Source: an uncultured Chloroflexia bacterium (GTDB taxonomy: Bacteria; Chloroflexota; Limnocylindria; QHBO01). From it: 64,000 bases of DNA. This document shows positions 46,310 to 48,091 of this stretch, piece by piece; the stretch's first letter is position 1, and every line of letters begins with the position of its first letter. A model generated the notes under the pieces. The model was not told the DNA's origin and did no database searches. It saw only the letters and a program-made list of their open reading frames with translations. The stretch covers positions 53,592 to 117,591 of the forward strand of contig CAWHEV010000006.1 in assembly GCA_963828485.1 (NCBI GenBank). The letters are read 5' to 3'. The translations under genes and the position numbers were made by a program.

Positions 46310-46936
46310 TCACCACGAGCGGTGGGTTCCCATCCCGGGGTGCACGGCCTCGTGCATTGCGGGGCCAGCCCCGTTGAGCTCGAAGCGATCGACCTGGAGG
46401 GTCCGGATGTCAAGGGCAAGCGCGTCGTGGACGTCATGGCCGAGAAGCAGGCCGTGGAGCTGCTGGAGGAACGTCTGATGCGCGACGAGGATCACCGCCG
46501 GTCCTGGAACCGCGAGGAGGACCTCGAGTGCCCTTTCGGCACGCGACCGGACCTCCTCGAACGACTCCCCACCGGGGGGATTCAGCGAGTGCCTGATGCC
46601 GCCCCTCTCGATGTAGGTGATCCGATCGGCGTAGGTGGCAACCTCTTCCGGGGGGATCCCCTCGAGGACGCCGTAGCTCCGCTCGACGCACAGCTCGCTG
46701 GTCACGATCGCGCCGTCGTCGACGGTGGTGACGATCGCGGCAGTCTCCCGCGCACGGAGCATCGGCGAGCTGGCGACCGTGTCGGCGCTGAGGGGCCCGA
46801 GCAGCTCGCGCAGCTCCCGTGCCAGAGCCCGTCCGGCATCCGAGAGTGGCTCGTCGAGCCGGCCGCTGATGATCTGGGAGGCGTTGTGGGCCGTCGTCGA
46901 GTGGCGGATGGTCGTGATCGTTCGAGCGGCCGTCAT
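46310..46936 (-). CDS. Histidine phosphatase (PGM-like) family protein
   Basis: IRHS, SSPMLRARETA, PGGES, VAHQ; ATG overlaps the enolase-like stop. Confidence 0.85.
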   Translation of the reverse strand: MTAARTITTIRHSTTAHNASQIISGRLDEPLSDAGRALARELRELLGPLSADTVASSPMLRARETAAIVTTVDDGAIVTSELCVERSYGVLEGIPPEEVATYADRITYIERGGIRHSLNPPGGESFEEVRSRAERALEVLLAVPGPAVILVAHQTFLQQLHGLLLGHDVHDALALDIRTLQVDRFELNGAGPAMHEAVHPGMGTHRSW

Positions 46937-48091
46937 GCGCTCGCTCCGCGCAGCAGCGCGTTGGTCCGCATCACCGAGCTGAAGTCCGAGAACGGGCCGA
47001 TCTTGATGTAGTCGGCGCCGAGGTCGGTCGACAGGTGAATCAGGAACGGGGCGTCCGTCTCGATGGACCGGTGCGAGGCGGCGATGGAGAGCCCCGCCGC
47101 CCGCGCAAGCTCTGCGAATCGCAGCGGTGCCCGTCACCGTCCCGTTCTGGTCCGGCTTGACCAGGACGCCGTCCACGAGGTGCGACTTCGCCGCCAGCTC
47201 GGCGGGCTGCACCGACGTCAGGTTGTCGCCATAGAGATGGGAACGCTCCGGCCGGCGCCGATGGAGATCCGCCCACGAAGCGACGTCGGTTTCGGCGAAC
47301 GGGTCCTCGAGGATCTCGAGGTCGAAGCGGTCCATGAGGCGCAGCCACTCTTCCACGAGTGCCCCGGGCTCGAGCCGAGTTCCGCTCACCGAGAGCTCGT
47401 ACTGATCGTTGACGAACCAGTCGCCGGCACTCGCATCGGCCATCAACCCGAACTGTTCCGAGAGGCCCGTGTCCGCGAGCAGCCTCTCCAACAGCGCGAA
47501 CCCGGCGAGGTTCGGATCGCGCCCGAGATCGTGGACACGATTCCCTCCGACCGTGGTCGTGGGCAGCTCGGCCAGAGCGCCTTTCGCCTCGCCGAGGATC
47601 TGGACATACCCCGCGACCGACGCCGCCAGGTCGTCGGACCGGGCGACGAGCAGGAACTCGCTGCAGTCGGAGACGATGGGGTTCGTGTACGCGTGCAGGC
47701 CGCCATTGAGGACGTTGAACAGGATGCGCGGGGTGCGGCCGAGGACGACGGGTCGCGTCGCTTCGTAGAAGGCGCTCGACATGGCATAGGTGGCGGCCGC
47801 GCCCCATTCGGCGCGCCCTTCGAGCAGCAGTGCATCGAGTTCCGCCTGGTCGAGCTCGACTCCCTCGACTTCTCGTGCGATTGCCTTCAGGACCTCGTCC
47901 GGCGCCGACCGGCCGCCTGTCTCGCGGTCCTCGTAGATGCTTGGCGTCTCACCACGGGGTGATGCCCCACGTCCCGTCCGTCCGTCCGCCAGCGTAACGG
48001 TGAACTCGACGGTCCAATCCAGGTGCGTGTTCAGCACCTGCCGTCCCGAGACCCCGGCGATCAGGGCCTTCTCGAGAGCCACGTCAACCAT
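46933..48091 (-). CDS. Divergent enolase-like protein, apparent +1 frameshift at 47126-47127
   Basis: NGGLH, SEF, ADAS, EDP, GDNL, VKPDQNG; after removing one base SHRS and YIKIG follow in frame; 1159 nt = 1158+1; GGAGG SD. Confidence 0.8.

Follow-up and report, generated by a model that had tools for sequence, protein, structure and literature searches.

A distinct enolase-like family without the canonical general acid, coupled to a histidine phosphatase in a Chloroflexota genome

A 64,000-nucleotide stretch of DNA (hereafter the window) from an uncultured Chloroflexia bacterium, whose genome is a metagenome-assembled genome (MAG) of 13 contigs, contains an enolase-like gene that overlaps a histidine phosphatase gene at its end and is divergently oriented to a gene for an AsnB-like ligase. 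Within the enolase family, the protein falls into a separate and so far uncharacterised clade whose members are about 385 amino acids (aa) long, and sequence alignments confirmed that this clade has lost the canonical GDEGG general acid. In the assembled sequence the gene is split over two reading frames. The locus comprises the following features:

47128 to 48091, minus strand: enolase-like gene, codons 1-321; this upstream frame covers the N-terminal domain and the barrel strands up to the general-base Lys (VKPDQNGTVTG).
47126 to 47127, minus strand: frameshift site, with CC in the window and a single C in the close relative L102.
46933 to 47125, minus strand: enolase-like gene, last 63 codons plus TGA, in a second frame (LRFAELARAAGLSIAASHRSIETD...YIKIGP...).
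46310 to 46936, minus strand: histidine phosphatase (His_Phos_1, 208 aa; Pfam PF00300, 114.9 bits, above the cut-off), whose ATG overlaps the stop codon of the enolase-like gene (ATGA).
48200 to 50152, plus strand: AsnB-like PP-loop ligase of about 650 aa, divergently transcribed, with an LTGGKDS motif and no N-terminal Cys nucleophile.

Translation of the minus strand from position 48091 runs from MVDVALEK to VKPDQNGTVTG. The upstream frame holds NVLNGGLHAY, SDCSEFLLV, MADASAGDW, ILEDPFAETD, YGDNLTS and VKPDQNGT, while ASHRSIETD, YIKIGP and the stop codon TGA (46935-46933) are found in the second frame. All motifs listed by the first-pass annotation of this DNA (NGGLH, SEF, D, EDP, GDN, K(PDQ), SHRS and IK) were recovered, with SHRS and IK in another frame than the rest. 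The upstream-frame part is 81% identical to the intact homologs P0003 and P0004, which read ...GTVTGT[V/L]RFAELAR... in a single frame; at 385 aa each, they also bear out the length of about 385 aa that had been proposed. That annotation had overlooked the frameshift and the operon context.

The upstream-frame part of the window's protein matched Pfam Enolase_C with 40 bits, over the cut-off, and Enolase_N below the threshold. Scores against TIGR01060 were 57.6 bits for this 323-aa part and 95.3 bits for the intact P0004, far from the cut-off of 300. An AlphaFold2 model of P0004, built from a 30-member alignment, had a predicted local distance difference test score (pLDDT) of 88.9, and its top Foldseek matches were all enolases, with template modelling (TM) scores of about 0.8 and 23-27% identity. 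Judging from this model, the protein has the enolase fold, with an N-terminal alpha+beta capping domain and a barrel that bears carboxylate metal ligands at its strand ends, and is a member of the enolase superfamily. Identity to the canonical enolases of the window's genus was 33-36%. A tree built from 53 family members and 25 canonical enolases splits the two groups by a long branch that has 100% support.

Active-site residues were mapped by HMMER profile-to-PDB alignment, by HHalign against 46 canonical enolases, and by column counts over 115 family members. Canonical residues are numbered as in yeast enolase, and family residues as in P0004. The correspondences are:

His159: H133 (108 of 115 members).
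Glu168: E145 (invariant in 115).
Mg(A) ligands Asp246, Glu295 and Asp320: D219, E262 and D289 (invariant in 115).
General base Lys345: K312 (invariant in 115).
Phosphate-binding His373-Arg374-Ser375: H340-R341-S342 (His in 111 of 115; Arg and Ser invariant).
Enolate-stabilising Lys396: K363 (invariant in 115).
General acid Glu211 (GDEGG): N184 (Asn in 101, His in 8 and Arg in 5 of 115).
Asp321: N290 (114 of 115).

Both HMMER and HHalign aligned Glu211 with Asn184, whereas the MAFFT register was one residue off and placed it at Leu/Arg/Pro185. The VGDEGGF motif is replaced by V[NGS]GN[LRP]V[HNA] in the family, and no conserved acid occurs at positions 178-193 of the 115 members in either alignment register. 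The window's protein reads VGGNRVHDLG here, in agreement with the earlier observation that GDEGG is missing. The lid loop has changed as well, from P-S-G-A-S-T-G to P-[K/R/Q]-G-E-T-[I/P]-S, such that the first Ser became K/R/Q and the Ala became an invariant Glu48. The Mg(B) serine (yeast Ser39, E. coli Ser41, M. tuberculosis Ser42) is, by residue count, presumably the second Ser of PSGAS, and therefore we take Thr49 as its equivalent; the aligned position is Thr in 107 and Ser in 8 of the 115 members. On this alignment a hydroxyl ligand appears to be kept at the Mg(B) position, and the PSGAS loop to be remodelled rather than lost. Hence, the first-pass annotation correctly described the loop as altered (SPRGETPS in the window), but the Mg-binding Ser that it considered lost has a counterpart in Thr49. 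The family further carries a 3-residue insertion (HAYTNPxxSD) after His159. In a Streptomyces subclade (P0018, P0027) the His373 equivalent is Ala, with ASARS instead of ASHRS. Mutational work on M. tuberculosis enolase found E204A, E163A, K335A and D241A inactive, while S42A kept about 5% activity (PMC10619443).

The phosphatase gene is a nearly constant companion. A His_Phos_1 gene lies directly downstream of the enolase-like gene in 27 of 28 genome loci and in 57 of 60 metagenome loci with enough downstream sequence (84 of 88 in total), and the junctions consist of a gap or overlap of a few bases. The translated phosphatase of the window shows the motifs RHS..., ERSYGVLEG and VAHQ. It scored below every CobC equivalog cut-off and far below those of all dPGM models, the best match being CobC-like with 75.6 bits against 162.9, and its closest solved relatives are phosphatases (TIGAR-like, PspA, PhoE, GpgP). 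Going by these matches, the partner looks like a phosphatase, not a mutase.

The enolase-like gene is an extra copy. A canonical enolase with 657 bits against TIGR01060 is encoded elsewhere in the window's genome, and a canonical enolase over the cut-off was present in all six carrier genomes checked (the window's and five others). Searches of 24 other genomes of the same genus (the unpublished G006 among them) and of 400 more genomes drawn from across the phylum detected no such paralog, and in 400 of the 401 Streptomyces species sampled it was likewise not detected. Carriers were found among Chloroflexota, Actinomycetota, Bacteroidales, Clostridia, Syntrophomonas, Nitrospirae, Holophagaceae, Caldisericota and Planctomycetota-like MAGs, and in a single archaeon, a Methanoregula MAG. 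Its distribution is sporadic. In the ESM Atlas the family makes up about 30 clusters, each with roughly 100-150 members and named just 'enolase family'; literature searches on the family or on the enolase-like/phosphatase gene pair returned no relevant publication.

To describe the neighbourhood of the enolase-like/phosphatase cassette across loci, we tallied Pfam families among the nearest two genes on each side in two independent sets of 94 and 134 open reading frames (ORFs). The commonest neighbours were Asn_synthase, RimK, ATPgrasp_ST and ATPgrasp_TupA, followed by glycosyltransferases, Wzx-type flippases (Polysacc_synt) and Wzy. Recurrent neighbours without Pfam matches were PaaK/CapK/F390-synthetase-like adenylating enzymes and a protein with an SGGxDS PP-loop, both likewise ligases. 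Ligases of five carboxylate-activating classes were counted with local hidden Markov models (HMMs) and NCBIfam; within two genes of the cassette, such a ligase was present at 19 of 29 loci from genomes and at 27 of 56 from metagenomes, often as two or three paralogs. At the genome loci L021, L026, L028 and L023, two or three copies of one ligase type (ATPgrasp_ST, AsnB-like, PP-loop or RimK-like) flank the cassette on both sides, which hints at stepwise or oligomer-forming ligation. The metagenome loci also include three with alanine-dehydrogenase/PNT-family genes and two with GHMP kinases by the cassette; these may possibly represent extra pathway steps.

The ligase of the window scored 38.9 bits against TIGR01536, for which the cut-off is 267, and matched TIGR03104 weakly. 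It starts with MHLFALG... and has no Cys there, so that it does not qualify as a glutamine-dependent asparagine synthase. A local HMM groups it with the ligases that adjoin the cassette in five other genome loci. The AsnB-like examples beside the cassette, the window's included, lack the N-terminal Cys and hence would be unable to use glutamine; presumably they join a carboxylate to a pre-formed amine. The cassette and one ligase stand alone amid unrelated genes in the window and in the Bacteroidales loci L022 and L027. A link to nonulosonic-acid loci in Bacteroidales was considered and found unsupported, as L022 and L027 consist of the cassette and a PaaK-like ligase among unrelated genes. 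In Streptomyces, the cassette at L101:9889-11070 (minus strand), on the contig that encodes P0018, lies about 17 kb from a contig end with no ligase nearby; next to it are a secreted GDPD/SMaseD-like protein and a GH15-like gene, labels that were read off the translation without a family search.

In the window, the three genes form an islet between two genes that are close neighbours in a related genome:

About 46303 to 50132: islet of phosphatase, enolase-like and ligase genes, 3.8 kb in place of an 89-bp spacer.
45427 to 46302, minus strand: F420-dependent LLM oxidoreductase (TIGR03560), flanking the islet.
50107 to 51507, minus strand: TrpB2-type tryptophan synthase beta paralog, flanking the islet.

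In a genome of the same genus (G009, contig C8), the LLM gene ends at 133814 and the TrpB2 gene starts at 133904, 89 bp apart and without an islet. The islet of the window replaces this spacer with exactly three genes, and we therefore suggest that the three were acquired as a unit. We interpret the islet as horizontally acquired in this genome, in line with the failure to find the paralog in the other genomes of the genus and phylum that were sampled. No convincing flanking repeats or att-like sites were found at the islet borders. A scan for promoter and terminator consensus sequences gave no match, which is uninformative at 69% GC.

From 48091 to 46933 there are 1159 nt, a length not divisible by 3. 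A DNA alignment with the close metagenomic relative L102 locates one extra C at 47126/47127 (GGCACCG in the window, GGCACG in L102). The upstream frame stays open into the phosphatase gene, which produces a spurious ORF of 925 aa. The 63 codons 3' of the shift contain no stops and encode 56 of 63 residues identical to L102; the ratio of nonsynonymous to synonymous substitution rates (dN/dS) is 0.19 in this part and 0.11 in the part 5' of the shift. In the family tree, the tip branch of the window's copy is no longer than those of its neighbours. The window contains further genes that appear broken:

54635 to 55820, plus strand: DAO-family FAD oxidoreductase split by a frameshift near 55290, with Pfam DAO positions 1-209 followed by 210-353 in another frame.
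6991 to 7332, minus strand: SIMPL/DUF541 fragment limited to profile positions 26-140 of 205, with an ORF tail that looks non-coding.
32253 to 33705, plus strand: PGA_cap gene with a coding-like upstream piece in another frame.

The latter two are probably further cases of frameshifts, and split genes within 64 kb suggest an indel-prone assembly. Two long-read MAG loci of the same family, L038 and L044, are likewise broken, at positions unlike that of the window. In L038, from a betaproteobacterial long-read MAG, a frameshift upstream of the KPNQ motif yields a false fused ORF of enolase-like protein and phosphatase (3216-4817, plus strand). A true enolase-phosphatase fusion was rejected, as it is reading in the wrong frame that creates the long ORFs of the window, L038 and L031. 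Programmed frameshifting was also rejected: the site has no slippery heptamer of the type X XXY YYZ, close homologs are single-frame, and the breaks in other MAGs occur at different positions.

The lack of stops, the low dN/dS, the unelongated branch, the similarly split DAO gene and the breaks in L038 and L044 imply that the one-base insertion most likely arose as an assembly error or through a very recent mutation. Alternatively, the extra C exists in the organism, and the window's copy is a real pseudogene in a cassette that is decaying in this lineage. The frameshift does stand in the assembled sequence, its site is merely a CC dinucleotide and not a long homopolymer, and the islet is an accessory acquisition. 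Nevertheless, we consider a pseudogene doubtful in view of the stop-free downstream region with its dN/dS of 0.19, the branch length, and the split DAO gene, probably not the only other one in these 64 kb, which suggests an indel-prone assembly of a 13-contig MAG. Frameshifts that produce false fused ORFs call for caution with this genome in any case.

The absence of the canonical acid, the extra copy beside a normal enolase and the coupling to a phosphatase together point to altered chemistry. We propose, with a probability of roughly one half, that the protein is an active but non-dehydrating enzyme of the enolase superfamily, which makes a phosphorylated small acid that is then dephosphorylated and ligated. 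The enzyme would bind 2-phosphoglycerate or a closely similar 2-phospho-alpha-hydroxy acid, and abstract the C2 proton to give a Mg-stabilised enolate. The acid-catalysed loss of the C3 hydroxyl would be absent. Instead, the enolate might be reprotonated, resulting in epimerisation (e.g., of D- to L-2-phosphoglycerate), or a C3 substituent that needs no protonation might be added or removed. With the acids Glu211 and Asp321 lost near C3 and K/R/Q gained in the lid, the pocket would suit an altered and possibly anionic C3 group. The phosphate would be taken off, either directly or after ligation, by the histidine phosphatase, whose gene is translationally coupled. The adjoining ATP-dependent carboxylate-activating ligase, which is Cys-less and AsnB-like in the window and of the ATP-grasp, PP-loop or PaaK/CapK-like type elsewhere, would couple the product to an amine or similar acceptor, often in surface-glycan loci. 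The extra copy thus probably makes a small acid building block and does not serve glycolysis.

Several points weigh against this proposal. At about half of the loci, none of the genes up to two positions away encodes a ligase, and gene content further out varies between loci. We identified no conserved residue that could serve as the second base for epimerisation: only 70 of the 115 members have His187, and His340 is Ala in the Streptomyces subclade. The window's own copy would be inactive if its frameshift is real. Moreover, Glu48, which is invariant and adjoins the Mg(B) ligand, could have taken over as the acid, and the protein would then be a true enolase.

In that case, the family would convert 2-phosphoglycerate to phosphoenolpyruvate (PEP), with the general acid moved, e.g., to the invariant Glu48 or to Glu145/His340, and supply PEP locally, e.g., for pyruvylation or enolpyruvyl transfer. 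Catalytic residues are known to migrate within enzyme superfamilies. The family keeps every other catalytic residue, with a hydroxyl also at the position of the Mg(B) Ser, and Glu48 stands in place of an Ala near that ligand. However, a canonical enolase is already present in all six carrier genomes checked, the coupling to a phosphatase at 84 of 88 loci fits poorly with a supplier of PEP, and the change of Asp321 to Asn together with other invariant pocket changes suggests a changed substrate. The M. tuberculosis E204A variant, which lacks the acid, is also inactive (PMC10619443). We consider a genuine enolase unlikely. A narrower version of our proposal is an acid-independent C3 lyase or synthase, which would, for example, form a 3-substituted 2-phospholactate from PEP and sulfite, an amine or a thiol, in analogy to ComA/ComB, or eliminate phosphate from 2,3-bisphosphoglycerate, with dephosphorylation afterwards. 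The replacement of both Glu211 and Asp321 by Asn near C3, the K/R/Q gained in the lid loop, and a phosphatase partner that parallels ComB (discussed below) agree with such an enzyme. Yet no sulfur-, amine- or phosphonate-related gene recurred among the top neighbour families, and we regard this specific chemistry as improbable.

The first-pass annotation had offered either altered chemistry or a non-catalytic role. The former agrees with our proposal, whereas the latter is disfavoured. Enolases are known to have moonlighting roles, and the loss of the canonical acid would suit a protein with the enolase fold that only binds or acts as a scaffold. In contrast to this expectation, the metal ligands, both lysines and the HRS triad are conserved in 115 members, the dN/dS of about 0.1-0.2 indicates purifying selection, and the gene forms a tight operon with an enzyme. 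A non-catalytic function is therefore very improbable.

Returning to the proposed non-dehydrating enzyme, its reaction may be new to the enolase subgroup, being either epimerisation of 2-phosphoglycerate or addition or elimination of a non-hydroxyl C3 group on a PEP or 2-phospho acid scaffold. Together with the phosphatase and the ligase it would then constitute a route of three enzymes, hitherto undescribed and widely dispersed, by which a small hydroxy-acid unit is made and attached; we put this idea forward tentatively. Possible products include N-glyceroyl or L-glycerate decorations of surface glycans, of which the genetic basis has been described as unknown (PMC5378307). If the product indeed decorates glycans or peptides, the route could account for orphan modifications, N-glyceroyl groups among them. 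With a fixed phosphatase partner and recurring ligases, the function lends itself to a direct test with three purified proteins. Enolase is among the most conserved enzymes known, and in the literature searched we found no description of a natural, conserved loss of its general acid. As the thousands of metagenomic members in many phyla are annotated plainly as 'enolase', glycolytic capacity is assigned wrongly and a probable new pathway stays hidden.

Compared with glycolytic enolase (EC 4.2.1.11; TIGR01060; Pfam Enolase_N/Enolase_C; E. coli 6bfy, M. tuberculosis 7clk), the family shares the two-domain fold (TM about 0.8), the Mg(A) ligands, Lys345, Lys396, Glu168, His159, His373-Arg374-Ser375 and a hydroxyl at the Mg(B) position. 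In contrast to the glycolytic enzyme, it has Asn for both Glu211 and Asp321, a P[KRQ]GET[IP]S lid loop and the 3-residue insertion; it is also about 40 residues shorter, scores far under the TIGR01060 cut-off, and is an extra copy coupled to a phosphatase. The same single functional loss characterises two engineered enolases, yeast E211Q and M. tuberculosis E204A. Yeast E211Q is said, from work by Poyner et al. in 1996, to still exchange the C2 proton while barely dehydrating. Unlike in these laboratory mutants, the substitution in the family is natural, clade-wide and accompanied by other invariant pocket changes.

In phosphinothricin tripeptide biosynthesis, PhpG and PhpH are a homolog pair of phosphoglycerate mutase and enolase that acts on a 2-phosphoglycerate analogue. 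They offer a lead in that a dedicated copy of a lower-glycolysis pair works on a modified phosphoglycerate. However, PhpH dehydrates and should thus need the acid, and the partner in our family looks like a phosphatase rather than a mutase. Phosphonate genes were absent from the top-25 neighbour families, a tally that included no dedicated search for PEP mutase or CPEP mutase. Another possible analogy concerns ComA/ComB, a phosphosulfolactate synthase and a phosphatase, and the glucuronamide pathway of C. jejuni (Cj1435-Cj1438), which comprises a TupA-like ATP-grasp ligase and a phosphatase. Neither system has homology to the enolase-like protein. The shared logic would be that a phosphorylated C3 unit is made, ligated or otherwise used, and dephosphorylated, and, as in Cj1435-Cj1438, TupA-like ATP-grasp ligases recur beside the cassette.

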